Below, one piece after another: positions 3,740 through 12,874 of a stretch of DNA of 34,271 nucleotides. Under the pieces are notes generated by a model. That model was not told where the DNA came from. It searched no databases and saw nothing but the letters and a program-made list of their open reading frames with translations. Numbering within the stretch: the stretch's first letter is position 1; each line of letters opens with the position of its first letter. A program made the translations under genes and the position numbers. The stretch is taken from the IMG/VR virus record IMGVR_UViG_2734482775_000003, positions 1-34,271 of that record, one strand, 5' to 3'. The DNA comes from a virus. Its lineage: Duplodnaviria; Heunggongvirae; Uroviricota; Caudoviricetes.

Positions 3740-3939
3740 ACAAAAAGACCTGGTTTCGCGCATACATGTGGGCGCTGGTATGCGTCCTCGTCTCTTTCAT
3801 TCTGTATGCAGGACTACTCCCCCGAATGATTTCATCAGACAGCTCCTTCCTGGTATTGCTGGGCATTTTCATTGCCATGCTGTACCCGGCAGGCGTTGTT
3901 CGCCTTTTCAGTAAGTACATCAAGGAAATCAAGCAATGA
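3736..3939 (+). CDS. Small two-helix membrane protein
   Basis: 67 aa with two hydrophobic stretches (WALVCVLVSFILYAGLL and FLVLLGIFIAMLYPAGVV); translationally coupled to the SPFH gene. Confidence 0.55.
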   Translation: MNKKTWFRAYMWALVCVLVSFILYAGLLPRMISSDSSFLVLLGIFIAMLYPAGVVRLFSKYIKEIKQ

Positions 3940-4766
3940 AGAAATTCAAACTCTTTCAGATTCTCCCGCTTTTTGCCGCCATCCTGCTGGTTGGTTGCGA
4001 TCGCGTTGAGCCAGGTAATGTGGGAATCAAAGTCAACAAACTGGGCGACGACAAAGGCGTCGGCGAAGTAGTTGGCGTTGGCCGCTACTGGACAGGCTGG
4101 AATACAGAGGTTTACATCTTCCCGACTTTCAAACAAATGAAGACTTACGATGAGCCGTTCAACTTCCAGATGAGTGACGGCACAACCATCGGCTATCACA
4201 TCGGCGTGGCCTACAAAGTTGATCCATCCAAAGTTACCACGGTGTTTCAGACCTACCGCAAAGGCGTGGACGACATTACCGACACTGACCTGCGCCAGAA
4301 GATCGCCGACGCACTCAACCGACTGGCCAGCAAAATGACCACCGATAAATTCATCGACGGTGGCAAGTCTGAACTGCTGGATTCAGCACTTAAAGATATT
4401 CAGGCAGAAATGACACCCATCGGCATTCAGGTAATGAGCCTCTCTTATGTCGGTAAACCGGAATATCCGCCAACCGTTATCGACAGCATTAACGCCAAAG
4501 TCACGGCAAACCAGAAAACCCTGCAACGCGAACAGGAAGTAAAACAGCGCGAAGCAGAAGCCAACATGTTGCGCGCAGAAGCTGCCGGACAGGCTGATGC
4601 CATTCGCACAAAAGCCCAGGCTGAAGCCGACGCCATTCGTTTACGCGGCGAAGCTCTGCGCCAGAATCCCGGCGTTATGGAGCTGGAAGCGATCAACAAA
4701 TGGAACGGCACGCTGCCGCAATACATGACCAGTAACACCGCTGTTCCGTTCGTTCCCGTGAAGTAA
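3936..4766 (+). CDS. SPFH/band-7 (stomatin/prohibitin/HflKC-like) lipoprotein
   Basis: Lipoprotein signal with lipobox LLVGC; central SPFH-like domain followed by an Ala/Glu/Gln-rich coiled-coil (QREAEANMLRAEAAGQADAIRTKAQAEADAIRLRGEA), the usual architecture of bacterial band-7 proteins. Confidence 0.7.
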   Translation: MKKFKLFQILPLFAAILLVGCDRVEPGNVGIKVNKLGDDKGVGEVVGVGRYWTGWNTEVYIFPTFKQMKTYDEPFNFQMSDGTTIGYHIGVAYKVDPSKVTTVFQTYRKGVDDITDTDLRQKIADALNRLASKMTTDKFIDGGKSELLDSALKDIQAEMTPIGIQVMSLSYVGKPEYPPTVIDSINAKVTANQKTLQREQEVKQREAEANMLRAEAAGQADAIRTKAQAEADAIRLRGEALRQNPGVMELEAINKWNGTLPQYMTSNTAVPFVPVK

Positions 4767-4928
4767 TGACACCCGGCCAGTGCAAACCGCTGGCCGGAGC
4801 AGTATCAGGATTTTTTAGTATGCCGTTCTCACAAAAAAACCGCTTGCCATGCCGCAATCAGTCAGGTTACATTTTCGCTGCACCTCATAAAACGGGTGCC
4901 GGGTTTCGCAGCCTGCTGACTACAAGAG

Positions 4929-4958
4929 CGCACAACCGCGCCAGCGGTTTTTTTGTGC
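4929..4958 (+). terminator. Putative intrinsic terminator inside the early region
   Basis: GC hairpin CCGC-GCCA-GCGG followed by a T7 run, flanked by CGCACAA / TTGTGCG. Confidence 0.4.
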
Positions 4959-5133
4959 GTACTGTATTGCCACGTTTTTTTCGCGTCAGAATTATGGCGG
5001 GGCGTACGGGGCCGACTTCGGTCGGGCCGGGATCTCTTGTAGCCGGTACTGCGAACCTCGTACGTCTCGCCACCCACAGTTTCGCAGCTCTGGATGGTGA
5101 GCTTTCACAACTTACTACAAGAGGCCACATATC

Positions 5134-5364
5134 ATGGCAAACCGCAAACAGCACCGCGCTATCGCGGAGCGTCGTCACATCCAGACTGAAATCAACCGCA
5201 GACTTTCCCGCGCATTCCGCGTCGCTAAAATCATGCACATCAATATGCTGCATGAGCGTAGCTGCGAACTTTCAAACCTCTACTCATCCGCTGTTTTCAG
5301 TTATCTGGCGGATGATCTGCGCGAGCTTCAGCAGCTCATCCAGCAGCAAAACAAACTCCATTAA
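5134..5364 (+). CDS. Hypothetical Arg-rich small protein
   Basis: 76-aa ORF directly after the structured non-coding stretch. Confidence 0.4.
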   Translation: MANRKQHRAIAERRHIQTEINRRLSRAFRVAKIMHINMLHERSCELSNLYSSAVFSYLADDLRELQQLIQQQNKLH

Positions 5365-5436
5365 TTCCTGTTCCGGGCCTTTCCTGCACCTTGCGGCGGG
5401 AGGCCTTCGCACATCTGTAACCAGAGGATTGCCGCA

Positions 5437-5802
5437 ATGATTCTCGCCAACGACTTTCTTGAATACCTGCTCAACACAGAGCGTGATCTTGCCGTTCGCG
5501 TGCGTGAACGTTATGACATGTACCTGAAATCCCTGCCTGTACCGCAGCTCGCTGACGGAAAGATTGTTATTGATGGTCGCTACATGATTGACAGCCACGA
5601 GGGAAATTACAGGCTTTACCGCATTGAAGGTGGCACCCCGTCCGTTATTGGCATTTACCAGCGCCCATCCTCTGCAATCGTCGATGTGATTGCCGACAGC
5701 ATCCGCATCACACATCGCCATGCCGACACAGAAGACACCGTGCTGGAAATTCAGCGGCTGGCTACAGTCTGCCGCGACACCCTGAATGGCATGACGAAGT
5801 AA
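5437..5802 (+). CDS. Hypothetical protein immediately upstream of gpA
   Basis: 121-aa ORF, same strand, 6 bp before the gpA start. Confidence 0.5.
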   Translation: MILANDFLEYLLNTERDLAVRVRERYDMYLKSLPVPQLADGKIVIDGRYMIDSHEGNYRLYRIEGGTPSVIGIYQRPSSAIVDVIADSIRITHRHADTEDTVLEIQRLATVCRDTLNGMTK

Positions 5803-5808
5803 ATCACT

Positions 5809-8631
5809 ATGACGGCAGAGTACATCAGGGACTGGCAACAACCGCGCCACGCAGTAGGACGTGAAGGAACGGGGATCCCCGCACCTGAATCCGCACTTTC
5901 CTCCTGGCTGGATGCCTACCGGGCAGAGAACGAGCGCCGCCAGGAAATGGCTGACGCGGCGTTCTCCGCCACACCGCTGGGCAACCTGATTAATAAAAGC
6001 CTGGACGCACAGGAAAAGCAGGACAAAACCATCACACTGGCCAGAGAAGCCAGAAAACAGGCACGCGGTGCGGTGGATGAAGCCATGGCCTCGCTGCGCC
6101 TGCTGCCGTCCTATCTGCGCGATCCGCTTATTCGCCACCTCTCCTTCCTGCGCAAAAAACAGGAAGCCGATCGCCGGAAAGGCAAAAAGAGCTGGCAGGC
6201 GGAACGCTATGCACGCGGAACCCTGCGCAAAATATTGGAACGTCTGGCCCGCACTGACGGACGCTGGCTGACTCCGGGTTATCGCTCCCTTGCCGGACGT
6301 GAACGTCTGGACGATTTACTTTACCTGCCGCAGCTCAACAAACACCAGATACAGACACTGGCCGTCATGACGGCGGCAATGTTCAGCAGCACCTTCGAAA
6401 AACTCTGCGATGGCTTTGGCGCGACCGATGGCGAGCTGACCATGGATATAACGCTGAAGGCGTATCAGCTGCTGGCTCGCATGGCGTTACATCTGCACAC
6501 AGTGCCTCCGCATTATGACGCACTGACAACAGACAAAGACCGGAGGAACGAACCGGACACAGAACTGCTGCCGGGTGCAATCCTTCGCCTGACCTGTGCG
6601 GACTGGTGGAAACGCAAATTGTGGCTTTTACGTTGCGAATGGAGAGAGGAACAACTCCGCGCTGCCTGTCTGGTTTCCAGAAAAACATCCCCCTATCTGA
6701 GTCAGGATGCATTAAGTGAATTTCGCGCACAGCGCGAGAAAACACGCGATTTCCTGAAAAGTTTCATGCTGGAAAATGAAGACGGGTTCACGATTGATCT
6801 CGAGACGGTGTATTACGCAGGTGTCAGTAACCCGGTCCACCGTAAAGCAGAAATGATGGCCACCATGAAGGGACTGGAACTTCTGGCCGAAGCCCGTGGC
6901 GACAAAGCGGTGTTTCTGACTGTCACCTGCCCGTCAAAATACCACGCCACAACAGAGAACGGTCATCCGAATCCCAAATGGAACGGGGCCACCATGCGCG
7001 ACTCCAGCGATTACCTGGTTAACACGTTTTTTGCGGCGGTCCGCAAAAAACTGAACCGCGACGGCCTGCGCTGGTATGGCATCCGCACGGTGGAGCCTCA
7101 CCATGACGGCACCGTGCACTGGCATATGATGGTCTTTGCTCATCCGGAAGAAATCGACAGCATCGTGGCCATCACCCGCGATATTGCCATTCAGGAAGAC
7201 CGCCACGAGCTGGGCAATGATATTACTCCGCGCTTTAAGGTGGAGTACGTCGACGGCTCCAAAGGCACGCCAACCAGCTACATCGCCACCTACATCGGAA
7301 AAAACCTGGACAGCCGCGCCGTGGATGGAATCGACCCGAAAACGGGCAAACCACGCGTTGACCACGAAACCGGAAAATCAATGGCCGAGAGCGTGGAGCG
7401 CGCCATCGGCTGGGCGCGCCTTCATCGGGTCCGCCAGTTCCAGTTCTTTGGCATCCCCTCCCGTCAGGTGTGGCGTGAACTGCGCCGCCTTGCCAGCCAG
7501 ATGGCACGCAACCCGGAAGGCCCGCAACGGCTGAAGGATGACGCAATGGATGCGGTACTCGCTGCCGCTGATGCCGGATGTTTTGCCACCTACATTGAAA
7601 AACAGGGTGGCGTACTTGTTCCGCGCAAGGACTACCTGATTCGCACAGCCTACGACCTCGCAGATGAGCTGAACGATTACGGCGAACAGAGTGTACAGAT
7701 TTACGGGATCTGGTCGCCATTCATCGGGGAATCCTCCCGTGTGTGCACGCATCCGGATAACTGGAAGCTGGTAAGACGTAAACCGGAAGCGGAAGACAGC
7801 GCCCGCGAAAATGGTTTTGACCTTCAGGGCGGCCCTGCCGCCCCTTGGACTCGTGGCAATAACTGTCCCCGTGTACAGGAAACGGACAACAACGGGACAG
7901 AACAGCCGGAAGAACGGCCAGCACCGTGGCCGCAGCTCCCTGACGGCGTTGAAGTGAACGAATGGATGCGCTCACTGAAACGGCACGAACGCCGGGCGCT
8001 GATGCGTTCGCTTCGTGACAAACAGGCAAAAAACAGCAGTGATGAAATGCAGAGCTGGACACAGAGCCGCAAACAGCAGCGGCCTTTGCCTGATAACCAC
8101 GAATTACTCGCTAAAGAATGGCGGGAGTCTGCTGAATCTCTCGGCCTGCATATCGGTGAACAGCAGATGCAGCACCTGTTACGGGGCGGCAGTCTGTACG
8201 TTGACGGCAGCATCATTGCACCGCAGGGATTTGAAATTGTACGCAAACCGGATACCCGCCCGGACAGCCGAATCACGCAGCTCTGGCAACGCCTGAGCCG
8301 TAATCACGGCGTAAGCAGCACGGAGATCCGCCATAACCCGGTCGCCAGCTATCTGGAACAGCTTGGGGTATCAGACCCTGAAGCCGCCGCACGCCTGGCA
8401 TCCACACTTCAGCAAGACCAGAACACCATGAAAACACCCGTTACCGTGCTTTCTGACATGCTGCGCGCCATCCGCGACGCAGAGCACGCACAGAGAATCA
8501 GTGAAACCACTGAACGCGCCCGCCGCAAAGCAGACCTGCTGCGGGGTGGCCTGACCAGTGGAAACAAAAAACAGACAAAAACGGGATTCACAAATCCCGT
8601 AAATGAGCAAAAAACGCGCCGCGATATATGA
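5809..8631 (+). CDS. A: Rolling-circle replication initiation endonuclease, P2 gpA family (HUH relaxase-type)
   Basis: HUH-type motif TVHWHMMVFAH and paired catalytic tyrosines in SYIATYIGKN; position between the early operon and the packaging genes; about 180 aa longer than P2 gpA as I recall it. Confidence 0.9.
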   Translation: MTAEYIRDWQQPRHAVGREGTGIPAPESALSSWLDAYRAENERRQEMADAAFSATPLGNLINKSLDAQEKQDKTITLAREARKQARGAVDEAMASLRLLPSYLRDPLIRHLSFLRKKQEADRRKGKKSWQAERYARGTLRKILERLARTDGRWLTPGYRSLAGRERLDDLLYLPQLNKHQIQTLAVMTAAMFSSTFEKLCDGFGATDGELTMDITLKAYQLLARMALHLHTVPPHYDALTTDKDRRNEPDTELLPGAILRLTCADWWKRKLWLLRCEWREEQLRAACLVSRKTSPYLSQDALSEFRAQREKTRDFLKSFMLENEDGFTIDLETVYYAGVSNPVHRKAEMMATMKGLELLAEARGDKAVFLTVTCPSKYHATTENGHPNPKWNGATMRDSSDYLVNTFFAAVRKKLNRDGLRWYGIRTVEPHHDGTVHWHMMVFAHPEEIDSIVAITRDIAIQEDRHELGNDITPRFKVEYVDGSKGTPTSYIATYIGKNLDSRAVDGIDPKTGKPRVDHETGKSMAESVERAIGWARLHRVRQFQFFGIPSRQVWRELRRLASQMARNPEGPQRLKDDAMDAVLAAADAGCFATYIEKQGGVLVPRKDYLIRTAYDLADELNDYGEQSVQIYGIWSPFIGESSRVCTHPDNWKLVRRKPEAEDSARENGFDLQGGPAAPWTRGNNCPRVQETDNNGTEQPEERPAPWPQLPDGVEVNEWMRSLKRHERRALMRSLRDKQAKNSSDEMQSWTQSRKQQRPLPDNHELLAKEWRESAESLGLHIGEQQMQHLLRGGSLYVDGSIIAPQGFEIVRKPDTRPDSRITQLWQRLSRNHGVSSTEIRHNPVASYLEQLGVSDPEAAARLASTLQQDQNTMKTPVTVLSDMLRAIRDAEHAQRISETTERARRKADLLRGGLTSGNKKQTKTGFTNPVNEQKTRRDI
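8577..8606. repeat. Palindromic 30-bp repeat, copy 1 (inside the gpA 3' end)
   Basis: caaaaACGGGATTcacaAATCCCGTaaa, internal palindrome ACGGGA/TCCCGT. Confidence 0.6.
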
Positions 8632-8649
8632 AGCGCGCATAAAACAGGC

Positions 8650-8680
8650 AAAAACGGGATTTCAGAATCCCGTAAACGAT
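8650..8680. repeat. Palindromic 30-bp repeat, copy 2 (upstream of parM); candidate operator or centromere element
   Basis: Near-identical to copy 1 (caaaaACGGGATTtcagAATCCCGTaaa), about 73 bp centre to centre. Confidence 0.6.
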
Positions 8681-8707
8681 TAATTAATCAACATAAGGAA
8701 AAACGAC

Positions 8708-9667
8708 ATGAAAATTTGTATCGACGACGGCTCCACCAACATCAAGCTGGCATGGACTGAGAACGGCGAACGCCGCAACGCCATCAGCCCGAACAGCTTC
8801 AAGTCGGAATGGTCTGCGCCGTTCTGTGGCACGCAGCCCGCGAACTATATGCTTGATGGCGTGCGCTATGGTTTTGATCCGGTCAGCGATCGCTTTGTCC
8901 AGACGACCGACACGCAATACCAGTACAGCGATGTGAATGTCATTGCCATTCATCACGCGCTGGTCAAATCAGGCATCACGCCACAGGAGGTGGATGTGGT
9001 TGTCACCCTGCCACTGAGCGAGTATTTCGACACAAACGCACAGCCGGACATGACCAACATCAACCGCAAAAAAGCGAACGTTATGCGCCCGGTGGAGTAC
9101 CAGAACGGCGAAGCATTCACTATCCGTAACGTACGGGTTATGCCTGAATCCATTCCGGCTGGCTTTAAGGCACTGGCTGACATGAGTCCGTTTGAATCCC
9201 TGCTGATTGTGGATTTGGGCGGAACCACGCTGGATGTGGCAAAGGTTCAGGGGCAACTGGCAGGTATCAGCCAGATGTTTTGCGATCCACACGTAGGCGT
9301 TTCTCTGATGGCCGATGCCGTACTGTCGGTGATGGCCACTAACGGTATGCGCACCAGTCACCACATCGCCAATACCATTATCGAACATCGCCATGATGAA
9401 GCCTGGCTGCGCCAGCACATCCACAATGACGCGCATTACGCCAGCCTGATGGCGGTTATTCGTGAAAAGGAAGAAACACTGAAACAACGCGTGATCCGCG
9501 CGCTGGCGGGTTTTTCGGGTTACGGGCGGGTGATGGTTGTCGGTGGCGGGGCGGAGATTGTGGCACCCGCTATCCGCGAAGCCTGCGGAGTTAATGCGAC
9601 TTTCATCGCGGACGGGGTGCCACAGTTTGCTCTGGTTAATGGGCTGTACGCAATGGACAAGGAGTAA
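8708..9667 (+). CDS. parM: ParM/StbA-family actin-like segregation ATPase
   Basis: N-terminus MKICIDDGSTNIKLAW, plus YSDVNVIAIHHAL, VMPESIPAGF, LLIVDLGGTTLDV and GYGRVMVVGGGAE, all closely matching plasmid R1 ParM motifs as recalled. Confidence 0.85.
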   Translation: MKICIDDGSTNIKLAWTENGERRNAISPNSFKSEWSAPFCGTQPANYMLDGVRYGFDPVSDRFVQTTDTQYQYSDVNVIAIHHALVKSGITPQEVDVVVTLPLSEYFDTNAQPDMTNINRKKANVMRPVEYQNGEAFTIRNVRVMPESIPAGFKALADMSPFESLLIVDLGGTTLDVAKVQGQLAGISQMFCDPHVGVSLMADAVLSVMATNGMRTSHHIANTIIEHRHDEAWLRQHIHNDAHYASLMAVIREKEETLKQRVIRALAGFSGYGRVMVVGGGAEIVAPAIREACGVNATFIADGVPQFALVNGLYAMDKE

Positions 9668-9671
9668 ACCA

Positions 9672-9986
9672 ATGACGACACCAACCAGACGGATAAGTTT
9701 CTATCTGAAGCCAGTCGCCGTCAATAGTGAACGGGAGGCGTGTAATTACCTCGACAGCCTGCCAGCCTCTGAACGCAGCCGCGCGCAACGCGCGGCCTTT
9801 CTGGCCGGGCTGGCACTCATAAAACGCGATCCTGCATTTGCCTATTGGTTGGCCGAATGGCCGGAAGAAGGAGCTGCGCCAGCCAAGAATAATATTCAGA
9901 GTAAATATGCCAGCGCACCTGCCACCGGAAGCAATCACAGCACTAGCGAGATAAGAAAGAACATTCAGTCATTTTTCCCAGAGTGA
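9672..9986 (+). CDS. parR: ParR/StbB-family centromere-binding adaptor
   Basis: N-terminal region RRISFYLKPV...DSLPASERSRAQRAAFLAGLAL parallels R1 ParR (DSIPQGERSRLNRAALTAGLAL); AAGGAG RBS; directly follows parM as in par operons. Confidence 0.75.
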   Translation: MTTPTRRISFYLKPVAVNSEREACNYLDSLPASERSRAQRAAFLAGLALIKRDPAFAYWLAEWPEEGAAPAKNNIQSKYASAPATGSNHSTSEIRKNIQSFFPE

Positions 9987-10005
9987 AAACAGGAGAGGAG
10001 CATCT

Positions 10006-10437
10006 ATGGCAACTATCCCCAAAAAATGGTTACAACGCAAAATTGCAGACCTTGAATCGTGTCGTGAAGACATCCCGTTTGGCCTTGATGAAAACGATCA
10101 CAATATGTTAATCGCACTGAAAATCGCACTCACATCGCTGGAAGCGAAACCTGTTGCATGGACTGATGATGAGGAACTGCGTGATGTCAAGCAGTATGGT
10201 TTCGGTGAGATATTTCAGTGTCCGCCAGATAAATACGCGGACCCGCGACGTGTTATCCCTATGTATCGAGAGCCGCCAGCGCCAGCAGTACCAGATGGAC
10301 TGGTTAGAGCGGTGCGTTTCTATGAACAGGTAAAGCGTGAGAATCCGCCAGTCGAAACTGGAGTATGGAAAGACGCTATTGACTGGGTGACCAAAGAGGC
10401 TTGCCAAGCTGTAGACATTGGCATCAAAGGAGAGTGA
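10006..10437 (+). CDS. Hypothetical protein, co-operonic with parMR
   Basis: Strong RBS AGGAGAGGAG before the ATG; 143 aa; no motif recognised. Confidence 0.55.
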   Translation: MATIPKKWLQRKIADLESCREDIPFGLDENDHNMLIALKIALTSLEAKPVAWTDDEELRDVKQYGFGEIFQCPPDKYADPRRVIPMYREPPAPAVPDGLVRAVRFYEQVKRENPPVETGVWKDAIDWVTKEACQAVDIGIKGE

Positions 10438-10438
10438 T

Positions 10439-10702
10439 ATGGCAACTTTGACAAAAAAAGAACAAGCATGGTTGAGCGAATTACAGGACGTTCTTGATCG
10501 CTGTCCATCACCGAAAAAAATTGGTTTTTACACCATTGGCGATAAAAACATTTACCTGTATGACCTACGCCGCATGGATGAAATCATGGAGGCTCTTGAT
10601 AATCGTTCGTCAATGGATTGGTGTGTTGCTGTCCATGATATGAATGCAGGGTTTGATGAAAAGATTTTGTTCCCCTCATCAGTTGAAAGCACAGCAGGAT
10701 AA
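10439..10702 (+). CDS. Hypothetical protein, co-operonic with parMR
   Basis: ATG 1 bp after the upstream stop; 87 aa; followed by a terminator. Confidence 0.5.
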   Translation: MATLTKKEQAWLSELQDVLDRCPSPKKIGFYTIGDKNIYLYDLRRMDEIMEALDNRSSMDWCVAVHDMNAGFDEKILFPSSVESTAG

Positions 10703-10736
10703 GGACCCAGCCAATATACACAACCTATAAAACACT

Positions 10737-10763
10737 AAAGCGCCTCAGGGGCGCTTTTTGTTT
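10737..10763 (+). terminator. Intrinsic terminator closing the parMR-orf143-orf87 operon
   Basis: Hairpin GCGCC-tcagg-GGCGC followed by TTTTTGTTT. Confidence 0.7.
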
Positions 10764-10789
10764 GCACAAAAGTGCACAAATTTGCACAA
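10763..10789. repeat. Three direct TGCACAA repeats at 10-bp phasing
   Basis: tTTGCACAAaaGTGCACAAatTTGCACAAttttttt; helical-turn spacing suggests an array of protein-binding sites. Confidence 0.5.
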
Positions 10790-11288
10790 TTTTTTTGAAC
10801 GACTTTTTACCCTTCCGGCCCGCATGGCGGCTGGATCCGTCAAGGATCCGTGCGTGCACAAAAAAACGCGCTTTTTCTGCGCGCAGGTGACGGGGGAACA
10901 GCCCGCGTTTCAGGGGGTAAACAGCATTCCCTGAACGATGTCGCAGCGACACAACGGAATGGCTGTCTTTCTCTCGCTGAGCGTGAAAAATACGTGAGGG
11001 CTTTTGATTTGATGGGGTGACTGATAAGGCCGTCAAAATCGCACTGAGGCGACGAGAACATGCAGTCAGCACGGCGGGATTGCGTAAGAGCCTGACCGTC
11101 GATGATGACAATAAGCTGGAAGGCGTCGTGAAATTATCTGATTGATACAGGAGCTGGAGAGTCGGGGCATAAATTTTTTATGCCCCGGCGAAGCAGCAGA
11201 CAAGCGAAGCGCGTCAGCGATACGGCACCTTGCCGACCATACTTCATAAGTGCAAAATACGAGCAAAGAAATCAATGGAGGCTGTCTT

Positions 11289-11813
11289 ATGGTCATTAAT
11301 TACAAGCAGTTAAGAGAAAAACGGGAGCAGGTAAAGGAGAGCTTTCGCCGCAATGAAGATCTGACCCCGCTTGTACGCCTTGCCCAGGGCATTGTTGATG
11401 CTTATGAAATCTCGCTGGAGCTGCCATCACAGACCTGGACAGATAGCGACGGTAATCGCCAGCATTACGTTTCATGTGGACTGGAAGCAGCCGAAGGATT
11501 TCGCAGAATGCCTTTATCCCAGATCCCTGCCGCTACCCCCAAAGCACGAGGCAGCAATGATGAGCGAAAACTGACTTTTAGTATTGAAACGGTGGTTGAC
11601 GACACACCTGGCGAAGTCGCGTTCGTACACACTCCTGTTTCGATCGCAATGTATAACGATGAAATACAGGTTCGCGTTAATAATAATATCGTGCCACTTA
11701 AAGAAGGTAATTCACCCTACACCACCGTTTGTGAAGCCATTCAATATTACGTTCTCTCTGAAATTGATAATCTCAAGCCTGACGGCACCCAGAAAATGGT
11801 TCAACTCTGGTAA
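11289..11813 (+). CDS. Hypothetical protein (about 174 aa), orphan accessory gene between hotspot and portal
   Basis: ATG at 11289 in frame with track ORF 11250..11813; followed by a strong terminator; no motif recognised. Confidence 0.5.
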   Translation: MVINYKQLREKREQVKESFRRNEDLTPLVRLAQGIVDAYEISLELPSQTWTDSDGNRQHYVSCGLEAAEGFRRMPLSQIPAATPKARGSNDERKLTFSIETVVDDTPGEVAFVHTPVSIAMYNDEIQVRVNNNIVPLKEGNSPYTTVCEAIQYYVLSEIDNLKPDGTQKMVQLW

Positions 11814-11845
11814 AAAGGACAGCCCCATCACGGGGCTGTTTTTTC
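11813..11845. terminator. Bidirectional intrinsic terminator between orf175 and portal Q
   Basis: A-run, hairpin ACAGCCCC-atca-GGGGCTGT, T6 run; overlaps the Q 3' end. Confidence 0.7.
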
Positions 11846-12874
11846 ATCAAGAAGAGCATAAGAGTTAAAACGGATCACCTCTTCGCCAAGCCAGTCATTG
11901 ATGTGCTTCATAGCCTCCATGACGGGCATCAGCTCGTTAATTGCGTAAACCCGCGCGGCCTTCTCCACATCACCAAACGCACTTTTTTCGCCCGGCATCG
12001 CCCCCATCAGTTGCGGCGGAACGCGGTGCGCAGCCAGCACATCATCACGGGATGCCGCCTTAACATTCATGAACTCATCTTTTGCGGTGATCTGCTGGAA
12101 CGGCAAAATTTGCACCCCCTCTTTGCCCCCGTTGGGCGCATGAATGAGCACGTTTTTAAACGCACCACCACCACGTGCCCCCTGTAGCGTTTCTTTCAGG
12201 GAGTCCATGCTTTCGCGGTTTACCTGCGCTGCACCGATGTAGATGATGCACCCGGCGTGGGATCCGTTGTCGTAGTACAGTTTTCTGAACATGTCCGCCG
12301 AATGAGACAGGCTGGCCGAGAGTAATGCGCCAAGATATTCCGGCATGCCGTAGATTTCCTGGTTAATGTCCGGATTCATCAGGTGGCACACTTTGCCAGG
12401 GCGAAACTGGAACGCGTCCTTGCCATCATGCACATACCACCATGATTCAAGATCGCTTCCGCGTCGCATGTATTTCGCCAGGGCGTGCCGTAATTTAAGT
12501 GGTTCGCCGAGCATATTGCTTCGAAGCTCAAGGAATGCGTTACCGAACACAAACCAGTCCAGCGCCAGCGCCGAGAAATCCTGCCGGGAAAGCAGCGGGT
12601 GCGGGATGTAGCAACCGAGTAATACATTGCGCTTAAAGTAAAGCGCAGACTGATGCCAGGACGTTTGCCGGGCAGCTCTTGCCAGACCGTACCAGTCCAC
12701 CGGGGTTTCATACCACCGCCCGTTATCAGCACAGTACATATTGTCCAGCAGGTCATGCCCGGTCAGGCGATAAGGACCATCAAATGTGAATGCACTGAGC
12801 GATGATTCTTTCCTGAGCGCATCAGCGAGATCAATGCGTGAACTCATGCGCACTTTTTTATTTTTTCTGCTCAT
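11828..12874 (-). CDS. Q: Portal (capsid vertex) protein, P2 gpQ family
   Basis: 348 aa; position and orientation (leftward, adjacent to terminase ATPase) as in P2; recognised by overall similarity to P2 gpQ. Confidence 0.85.
   Translation of the reverse strand: MSRKNKKVRMSSRIDLADALRKESSLSAFTFDGPYRLTGHDLLDNMYCADNGRWYETPVDWYGLARAARQTSWHQSALYFKRNVLLGCYIPHPLLSRQDFSALALDWFVFGNAFLELRSNMLGEPLKLRHALAKYMRRGSDLESWWYVHDGKDAFQFRPGKVCHLMNPDINQEIYGMPEYLGALLSASLSHSADMFRKLYYDNGSHAGCIIYIGAAQVNRESMDSLKETLQGARGGGAFKNVLIHAPNGGKEGVQILPFQQITAKDEFMNVKAASRDDVLAAHRVPPQLMGAMPGEKSAFGDVEKAARVYAINELMPVMEAMKHINDWLGEEVIRFNSYALLDEKTAP

Follow-up and report, generated by a model that had tools for sequence, protein, structure and literature searches.

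orf143 and orf87, the two small genes that stand behind parR in a P88-like Escherichia coli prophage, are neither an obligate pair nor partition factors. Our best overall explanation, which we consider rather probable, is that they are mobile cargo genes with a host- or defence-modulating role. The structural and evolutionary part of this account, covering the identity of the genes, their origin and their lack of linkage to parMR, can be given with high confidence; the assignment to a functional class, as binders or modulators of host or host-defence proteins, is tentative and rests on negative evidence together with distribution.

The DNA analysed here, a stretch of 34,271 nucleotides hereafter called the window, is a P88-like E. 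coli prophage (genus Xuanwuvirus, P2 family). Megablast matches of the region include phages P88, PhiR44_2, 569R5, Shae_phiSM and others, and the E. coli MS8345 chromosome is 99.9% identical over positions 9900–10800, where PGAP annotates both ORFs as hypothetical proteins (orf143 as WP_000201251.1 and orf87 as WP_000224220.1). The features of the window are as follows.

Integrase and HTH repressor genes, minus strand.
Cox-like gene, DUF4761 gene, SPFH/Band-7 gene and two unknown ORFs, plus strand.
gpA replication protein gene, plus strand, 940 residues (PF05840, 4e-129).
8565–8606 and 8638–8679 (feature 8565..8679), no strand assigned: two 42-nt direct repeats between the gpA stop and the parM start.
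8708–9667, plus strand: parM, actin-like segregation ATPase (Pfam StbA_N, 1.1e-81; ParM_N, 3.7e-68; phrog_691).
9672–9986, plus strand: parR (Plasmid_stab_B; PF10784, 3.8e-25).
9991–10000, plus strand: Shine-Dalgarno sequence of orf143, AGGAGAGGAG, 5 nt upstream of the ATG.
10006..10437, plus strand: orf143, mosaic accessory protein (phrog_660); ATG at 10006, 19 nt past the parR stop; TGA at 10435–10437.
10426..10441, plus strand: junction AAAGGAGAG-TGA-t-ATG, with the orf87 Shine-Dalgarno sequence inside the last codons of the upstream gene (K-G-E-stop).
10439..10702, plus strand: orf87, 87 residues (phrog_1714; ST64T Orf-87 family); ATG at 10439, with AAAGGAGAG ahead of it.
10737..10764, plus strand: intrinsic terminator, consisting of a stem-loop at 10737–10757 (9-bp stem with 5 G-C pairs, 3-nt loop) followed by the T-tract TTTTGTTTG.
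From 11828, minus strand: portal and large terminase genes.

Each of the 42-nt repeats contains a 20-bp palindrome, ACGGGATT-N4-AATCCCGT, which makes the pair a candidate parC or ParR operator.

That orf143 and orf87 are genuine genes with these boundaries, as the original prediction held, is borne out by PHROG matches, by many homologues and by codon conservation in orf87. The phrog_660 HMM matched residues 1–142 of orf143 (1.8e-43), and the phrog_1714 HMM matched orf87 from end to end, residues 1–87 on profile positions 1–87 of 87 (1.2e-50), so that each protein belongs to its respective family; homologues fell into 821 and 143 clusters for the two ORFs. Opposite-strand ORFs within 10006–10702 were discarded, being without support while the plus-strand ORFs match PHROGs. 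The strong ribosome-binding site expected ahead of orf143 is present, as AGGAGAGGAG. A stop/start overlap between the two genes had also been proposed, and this needs correction: a single nucleotide separates TGA from ATG (TGAtATG). The clean intrinsic terminator stood up well, with a folding energy of −20.6 kcal/mol in its 76-nt context (z = −2.96) that none of 200 shuffles equalled.

Neither a hairpin, sought by folding (z = 0.15), nor a promoter-like site was found in the gap between parR and orf143, and a terminator search of the plus strand between gpA and 10737 gave no convincing candidate. An Rfam search of 8300–12000 returned no RNA family. Since all genes from cox through orf87 lie on the plus strand, and since the first strong plus-strand terminator past gpA is the one at 10737, the two ORFs are probably the tail of an early/par transcript. 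The layout thus suggests co-transcription with parMR and early expression: a rightward transcript running from cox through gpA-parM-parR-orf143-orf87 would end at the 10737 terminator, both genes would be made together with the early and par genes, and orf87 would be translationally coupled to orf143. Additionally, a weak ParR-regulated promoter within the 8565–8679 repeats could give low expression in the lysogen, which would fit a prophage-expressed role.

The two genes sit in the gpA–gpQ interval, between replication gene A and portal gene Q, a P2-like hotspot whose content varies among relatives. The original description of them as accessory cargo in a hotspot is accurate, as they lie in this interval of a P2-like prophage, in the same orientation as parMR and with no terminator between. 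About one quarter of P2-like phages have a putative partition system in the interval (Rousset et al. 2022, PMC9122126). The arrangement itself appears in Table S5A of that study as WP_000686540 + WP_000211292 + WP_000201251 + WP_000224219 + WP_100199588, annotated as StbA, Plasmid_stab_B and three hypotheticals, and WP_000224220, the orf87 product in MS8345, is found in other parMR arrangements of the same table (PMC9122126). The proteins, listed in RefSeq, their PHROG families (phrog_660 and phrog_1714, both of unknown function) and the exact hotspot arrangement are therefore already catalogued, the locus being one among about 1650 gpA–gpQ arrangements on record.

The location also bears on a different reading, in which orf143 and orf87 work together as a module for defence or superinfection exclusion, which the lysogen would express from the par promoter to block incoming phages. 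P2 itself has old and tin in the hotspot, and many defence systems are located there (PMC9122126), which favours the idea; the same catalogue files partition loci under 'other functions' (PMC9122126), which does not. We return to this reading below, where the protein-level evidence is given.

Comparison of the window with P88, PhiR44_2 and MS8345 delimited the segment that the two genes occupy. Across parM and roughly the first 18 codons of parR, the window matches P88 at 98% identity; the match breaks off at 9724, and the rest of ParR belongs to a different allele, so that the window and P88 proteins share only 52% amino-acid identity. P88 similarity returns at 10763, in a conserved backbone that starts with three (T)GCACAA repeats. 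Between these flanks P88 has gp19 and gp20, PhiR44_2 adds an XF1762-family gene and orf87 to these two, and other relatives have DUF4760 and further genes. Every version is closed by its own terminator right before the backbone, the P88 terminator differing from that of the window, and P88 has a hairpin after parR that is missing from the window. A variable content that ends in its own terminator each time, between conserved flanks, identifies the segment extending from the parR stop as far as 10762 as a cargo slot. Another slot adjoins the portal gene; in the window it is occupied by orf187 (11250–11813, phrog_5091), and in MS8345 and P88 it is empty.

To follow the genes beyond close relatives, we counted them in 5426 complete E. 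coli genomes. orf87 occurs in 978 of these (~18%), at 1186 places of which 90 are on plasmids, and this type of parM in 1279, with 1441 of its 1443 copies chromosomal. The orf143-specific part is present in 47 genomes, O104:H4 strains matching it at 100% identity and strain 55989 at 99%, and the full arrangement, with orf87 adjoining parR, in about 42. It thus accompanies this parM in only ~3% of the genomes that have it (42/1279), and ~96% of genomes with orf87 lack it. Similarly, parM lies within only 10 of 79 viral orf87 loci, taken from IMG/VR with 97–99% identical orf87 and flanks of at most 4 kb to either side.

These counts weigh on the suggestion, part of the original prediction, that orf143 and orf87 are novel ParMR accessory factors, such as proteins that regulate ParM filaments or the ParR–parC complex. 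The genes do adjoin parMR in the same orientation, only 19 nt after parR, yet the distribution largely refutes such a role: besides the low frequency of the arrangement among both parM and orf87 genomes, unrelated genes occupy the same slot in other P88-like phages, and orf87 is found in phages without a par system. An accessory component of ParMRC was rejected because neither gene co-occurs consistently with parM and parR across genomes, and we regard a partition function as scarcely credible.

orf87 has a broad range among phages. It is found in P22-like phages (ST64T, as Orf-87, phage L, Emek and VSe13) and lambdoid phages, in Chivirus (FSL SP-030 and many Salmonella relatives), in the Vequintavirinae phage Av-05, in phages of Klebsiella, Serratia, Aeromonas and Yersinia, and in the ~100-kb records CMS-2020a and 813R1, which we take to be phage-plasmids. 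In ST64T the homologue follows erf, abc1, abc2 and eae within the early-left region; abc1 and abc2 are anti-RecBCD genes. The DNA of orf87 is 95–96% identical to that of lambdoid 689R5 and P22-like VSe13, in each of which the preceding gene is annotated Ea22 or Ead/Ea22-like.

What precedes orf87 varies widely. Across the 79 viral loci at least 20 different, mostly unrelated ORFs of 29–212 residues lie upstream, among them Ead/Ea22-like, XF1762, small DUF4014-type and P88-gp20-like intermediate proteins. The preceding gene belongs to the XF1762 family in PhiR44_2, encodes a true Ead/Ea22-like coiled-coil protein in VSe13 and is another mosaic in 689R5; in Chivirus FSL SP-030 and in Av-05 it is gp44 and gp128, respectively, both unrelated to orf143. 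The original view of orf143 and orf87 as a pair does not survive this diversity, with at least 20 upstream ORFs in the 79 loci and non-homologous genes in Chivirus and Av-05, and a toxin–antitoxin or other two-gene, two-component system was rejected on the same grounds, several of the upstream ORFs being non-homologous. Together, the distribution and the varied upstream genes show that the two genes are neither obligate partners nor partition accessories.

The boundary between orf87 and its neighbour is constant. In all 78 loci in which an upstream ORF was found, the spacer ahead of orf87 is 1 nt, and most of these ORFs end in ...I-(R/G)-I-K-G-E-stop, which is the translated Shine-Dalgarno region AAAGGAGAG-TGA. 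The 1-nt spacer and the conserved I-K-G-E ends across unrelated upstream genes argue that the junction is a recombination joint travelling with orf87. We propose that the joint is the short ...G-I-x-I-K-G-E-stop + t + ATG segment, which would carry the orf87 ribosome-binding site within the final codons of any upstream gene. One viral locus, L048, combines the N-terminus of P88 gp20, the C-terminal module that orf143 has in the window, and orf87, which suggests that recombination at the joint, with a resident gp20-type gene, brought orf87 into the slot. According to this model, orf143 and orf87 would be separately mobile, non-essential accessory genes ("morons") from the early-region pool of lambdoid and P22-like phages (ea, exo-xis, nin), which recombination would have placed into the slot between parR and the backbone (10763) of a P88-like prophage; the C-terminal module of orf143 would be the one already resident in the slot in P88, as gp20.

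Rapid turnover of the slot is also what one might expect of hitch-hiking remnants that are functionless in the present prophage, and decay products do occur, such as P0011, in which a deletion has fused ParM(1–65) to orf87, and upstream ORFs that have been truncated. Here, neither ORF is disrupted and each is preceded by a strong ribosome-binding site; purifying selection acts on orf87, whose length is kept across distant phages; and dozens of genomes, O104:H4 and 55989 included, have the arrangement with at least 99% identity. We therefore consider this alternative very unlikely.

orf143 is a three-module mosaic of the Ead/Ea22-like/DUF551 gene pool. Its BLAST segments, from 120 homologues, start at residues 1, 27–28 and 39 and end at 95–97, 135 and 143, which delimit the following parts.

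Residues 1–38: N-terminal helical module, variable.
Residues 39–96: core, opening with the strongly conserved 'ALxSLEAxPVAW' and closing with 'PPAPxVP'.
Residues 97–143: C-terminal helical hairpin, common to P88 gp20.

The mosaic structure accounts for partial matches of orf143 to seven other PHROGs, and its C-terminal module has 89.5% nucleotide identity to P88 gp20. Relatives of orf143 have PF13935 (Ead_Ea22) or PF04448 (DUF551) in other modules, PF04448 being in a different C-terminal module. orf143 itself matched no Pfam family at E <= 1, and hence neither of these two. Membership of the Ead_Ea22 family was rejected on this basis, the HMM being matched by only 1 of 54 aligned relatives, as was membership of DUF551. 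An AlphaFold2 model of moderate confidence (pLDDT 72.7) consists of helical hairpins, for which a structure search returned generic helical hairpins only. The protein has a pI of 4.9 and no hydrophobic segment.

This ancestry raises the alternative that orf143 is an Ea22-like lysis–lysogeny modulator, that is, a pro-lysogenic oligomeric early protein, with orf87 as an unrelated passenger. P2-type lysogeny control, by C repressor and Cox, is unlike the lambda circuit, which speaks against a direct transfer of such a role, as do the absence of a PF13935 match in orf143 and in all but one of its 54 aligned relatives, and the absence of any sequence match between orf143 and the solved C-terminal domain of lambda Ea22 or any other PDB chain. 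Pointing the other way, orf143 has modules in common with Ead/Ea22-like-annotated proteins and with the one PF13935-matching relative, its model shows helical hairpins, a true Ead/Ea22-like coiled-coil protein often lies upstream of orf87 in lambdoid and P22-like phages, and lambda Ea22 favours lysogeny (PMC7093339, PMC10834534). On balance, we find this alternative doubtful, and retain the reading of orf143 as mosaic cargo.

orf87 is conserved across distant phages. It shares 61% amino-acid identity with ST64T Orf-87 without indels, and 88 codons are collinear, again without indels, in Chivirus, ST64T and Av-05. Compared with VSe13, 10 codons differ synonymously and 3 non-synonymously, synonymous changes predominate among close relatives, and orf87 is under purifying selection. 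A profile of the orf87 alignment, searched against 1.84 billion representative proteins, recovered 198 clusters, nearly all of them stand-alone proteins of 80–90 residues. Only a few hits are longer: these either join orf87 by read-through to the variable gene ahead of it or stem from a deletion that fuses it to parM, and because they contain no Pfam domain, they offer no informative domain fusion. Within the 75-member alignment, C22, P23, K27, G29 and R44 are invariant, and RCPSPKKIGFYTIGD together with a C-terminal FPSxVESTAG is nearly so. With a pI of 4.7, orf87 is an acidic protein, and it lacks hydrophobic segments. AlphaFold2 gave a confident alpha-beta-beta-alpha-alpha-beta model (pLDDT 91); this predicted fold has no PDB analogue, and Foldseek against BFVD returned members of its own family only. 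With a wide range, high conservation and, going by the model, a fold that has no solved analogue, orf87 appears mildly interesting.

The original observation that neither protein has a recognisable domain holds: Pfam, NCBIfam and PADLOC searches of both gave 0 matches, and PADLOC-DB v2 gave 0 defence families for orf143, orf87, parM, parR and orf187. The remote-homology and structure-prediction check that had been recommended yielded no homologue of known function for either, only PHROG families of unknown function, and no PDB fold for orf87 or, beyond generic helical hairpins, for orf143. PDB searches with single sequences and with profiles produced chance-level matches for both ORFs (E about 0.9–1.0), neither showed homology or fold similarity to known anti-defence or regulatory proteins, and no enzyme, nuclease, NTPase, membrane, toxin or DNA-binding signature was detected in orf143 or orf87. 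No paper on either ORF turned up when the literature was searched for accession numbers, PHROG ids and peptide strings.

Taken with the distribution, these results bear on the defence or exclusion module introduced above, which was also among the original suggestions. Its attraction lies partly in expression: in plasmids, as in R1 parMRC, parMR is constitutively expressed under ParR autoregulation, and the two genes lie downstream of parMR with a candidate operator at 8565–8679. Against it stand the lack of a PADLOC match, of any membrane segment and of nuclease, NTPase or toxin signatures, as well as the unconserved pairing of the genes; membrane-based exclusion was rejected, since neither protein has a hydrophobic segment. 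Moreover, Chivirus and Vequintavirinae, which are commonly considered virulent, have conserved orf87, and a prophage-only function would make no sense in them; the lambdoid and P22-like copies belong to lytic early operons and not to lysogen-expressed morons. We thus judge the defence module improbable.

Its presence in groups regarded as virulent, and in the lytic early operons of temperate phages, indicates that the function of orf87 probably serves phage development and not the lysogen. As no enzymatic, membrane, toxin or DNA-binding signature is present, the likeliest mechanism for the cargo genes is binding and modulation of a host or host-defence protein, and anti-defence or host modulation by orf143 and orf87 is a plausible prediction. 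In such a mechanism, orf87 would use its invariant RCPSP-K-G...GD loop together with the conserved C-terminal tail, and orf143 would serve, much like Ea22-type proteins, as a helical adaptor that is probably oligomeric. More speculatively, and with considerable doubt, orf87 might be a new fold that inhibits one conserved enterobacterial target, a defence or DNA-metabolism protein, via the RCPSP-K-G...GD loop and the STAG tail, across temperate lambdoid, P22-like and P2-like phages, phage-plasmids and the Chi-like and rV5-like phages, commonly taken to be virulent. Were this true, orf87 would represent a new anti-defence or host-takeover factor of wide distribution, present in ~18% of complete E. 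coli genomes.

The locus is an ordinary finding, in line with what is already familiar about mosaic accessory genes of phage hotspots. The analysis removes a tempting interpretation of the two genes as partition accessories or as a two-gene defence pair, and it points to a route by which cargo may enter the slot, through recombination at a short junction that holds the downstream ribosome-binding site within the last codons of the upstream gene. orf87 is a reasonable target for functional work, being widespread, under purifying selection, found in temperate phages and in phages regarded as virulent, and predicted to have a fold without a solved analogue.

Among known systems, plasmid R1 parMRC is the reference for the partition genes, and the window likewise has a bona fide parM and parR with repeats upstream. 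To our knowledge, R1 parMRC has no downstream accessory genes, whereas the window has orf143 and orf87 behind parR, unlinked to the par system across genomes; in addition, R1 is a plasmid, whereas the window's par system is part of an integrated prophage, in keeping with the almost exclusively chromosomal copies of this parM in E. coli. P88 gp19–gp20 and orf143–orf87 occupy the same slot, after parR and before the backbone, each with its own terminator, and gp20 ends in a homologue of the orf143 C-terminal module; P88 differs in lacking orf87 and in having the post-parR hairpin, and the window in lacking that hairpin and gp19. The validated defence systems of the gpA–gpQ hotspot consist of proteins unrelated to orf143 and orf87 (Rousset et al. 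2022).

With lambda Ea22, P22 Ead (PF13935) and DUF551 (PF04448), orf143 shares a gene pool and segments of sequence, and it holds the position upstream of orf87 that true Ead/Ea22-like proteins take in P22-like and lambdoid phages. Like Ea22 and Ead it is helical, acidic and of similar size; unlike Ea22 and DUF551 proteins, it matches neither Pfam family nor the sequence of the Ea22 C-terminal domain. The phenotype of lambda Ea22 is pro-lysogenic (PMC7093339). Finally, ST64T Orf-87 (phrog_1714) and orf87 are members of the same family, of ~87 residues and with the same conserved motifs, and in both cases a stand-alone small ORF tightly abuts the gene upstream; they differ in setting, orf87 lying behind parMR in a P2-family prophage and ST64T Orf-87 in the early-left (ea) region of a P22-type phage.

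At the upstream junction of orf87 (phrog_1714; 10439–10702), the second of two accessory genes following parMR, the Shine-Dalgarno sequence is supplied by the final codons (K-G-E-stop; 10426–10441) of whichever gene lies upstream. This arrangement recurs throughout the IMG/VR viral loci carrying orf87 (L009–L087), where unrelated upstream proteins share the ending ...IKGE and the spacer before orf87 is 1 nt in 78 of the 78 loci with an upstream ORF. The junction is a clear case of a recombination joint at a module boundary. Separately, a longer protein from an E. coli contig matched in the orf87 profile search (P0011) carries an in-frame deletion joining ParM residues 1–65 to orf87 residues from about 14 to 87; this fusion is a decay product, from another strain, of the very locus described here.

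Comparison with the related phage P88 showed that parM DNA is 98% identical between the two, whereas similarity in parR (9672–9986) is lost about 18 codons into the gene, with a breakpoint near 9724, and the ParR proteins are only 52% identical; we therefore conclude that intragenic recombination swaps ParR alleles while parM remains constant. Of 5426 complete E. coli genomes, 1279 carry the parM type of the window, and 1441 of its 1443 copies there lie on the chromosome. The plasmid life that parMR (8708–9986) has been suggested in the literature to allow such prophages is not reflected in finished assemblies.

Variable cargo also occupies a second position:

11222–11846: second cargo slot, adjoining the portal gene and containing orf187 (11250–11813)

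The orf187 product belongs to a family of unknown function (phrog_5091), gave no match in Pfam, NCBIfam or PADLOC, and is encoded in the window and phage PhiR44_2 while missing from the E. coli chromosome MS8345 and from P88. Further accessory cargo may be represented by three genes of the early operon, located just 5' of gpA:

3936–4766: SPFH/Band-7 gene (PF01145, 4.2e-31)
4766–5440 and 5437–5802: two ORFs without a Pfam match

gpA itself (5809–8631) encodes 940 residues, with the Phage_GPA domain confined to residues 179–503 and no confident family match for the C-terminal ~430 residues, whose coding sequence contains the first of two parC-like repeats:

8565–8679: two direct repeats of 42 nt each, 83% identical and 73 nt apart

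Each includes a 20-bp palindrome, ACGGGATT-N4-AATCCCGT, and the first repeat falls within the 3' end of gpA, the second just ahead of parM. These repeats are candidates for a parC centromere or a ParR operator, and differ in appearance from the 11-bp iterons of R1 parC.

To the right of the parR-proximal slot, the conserved backbone (10763–10905) opens with three (T)GCACAA repeats placed about 10 bp apart (10763–10789), and is also present in the P2-like phage record 500465-2, in which the rest of the 2.7-kb query, including parMR, was unmatched. The region is probably a cos or packaging region; near 10887–10905 it contains GGTGACGGGGGAACAGCCC, similar to the 19-mer of P2 cos.
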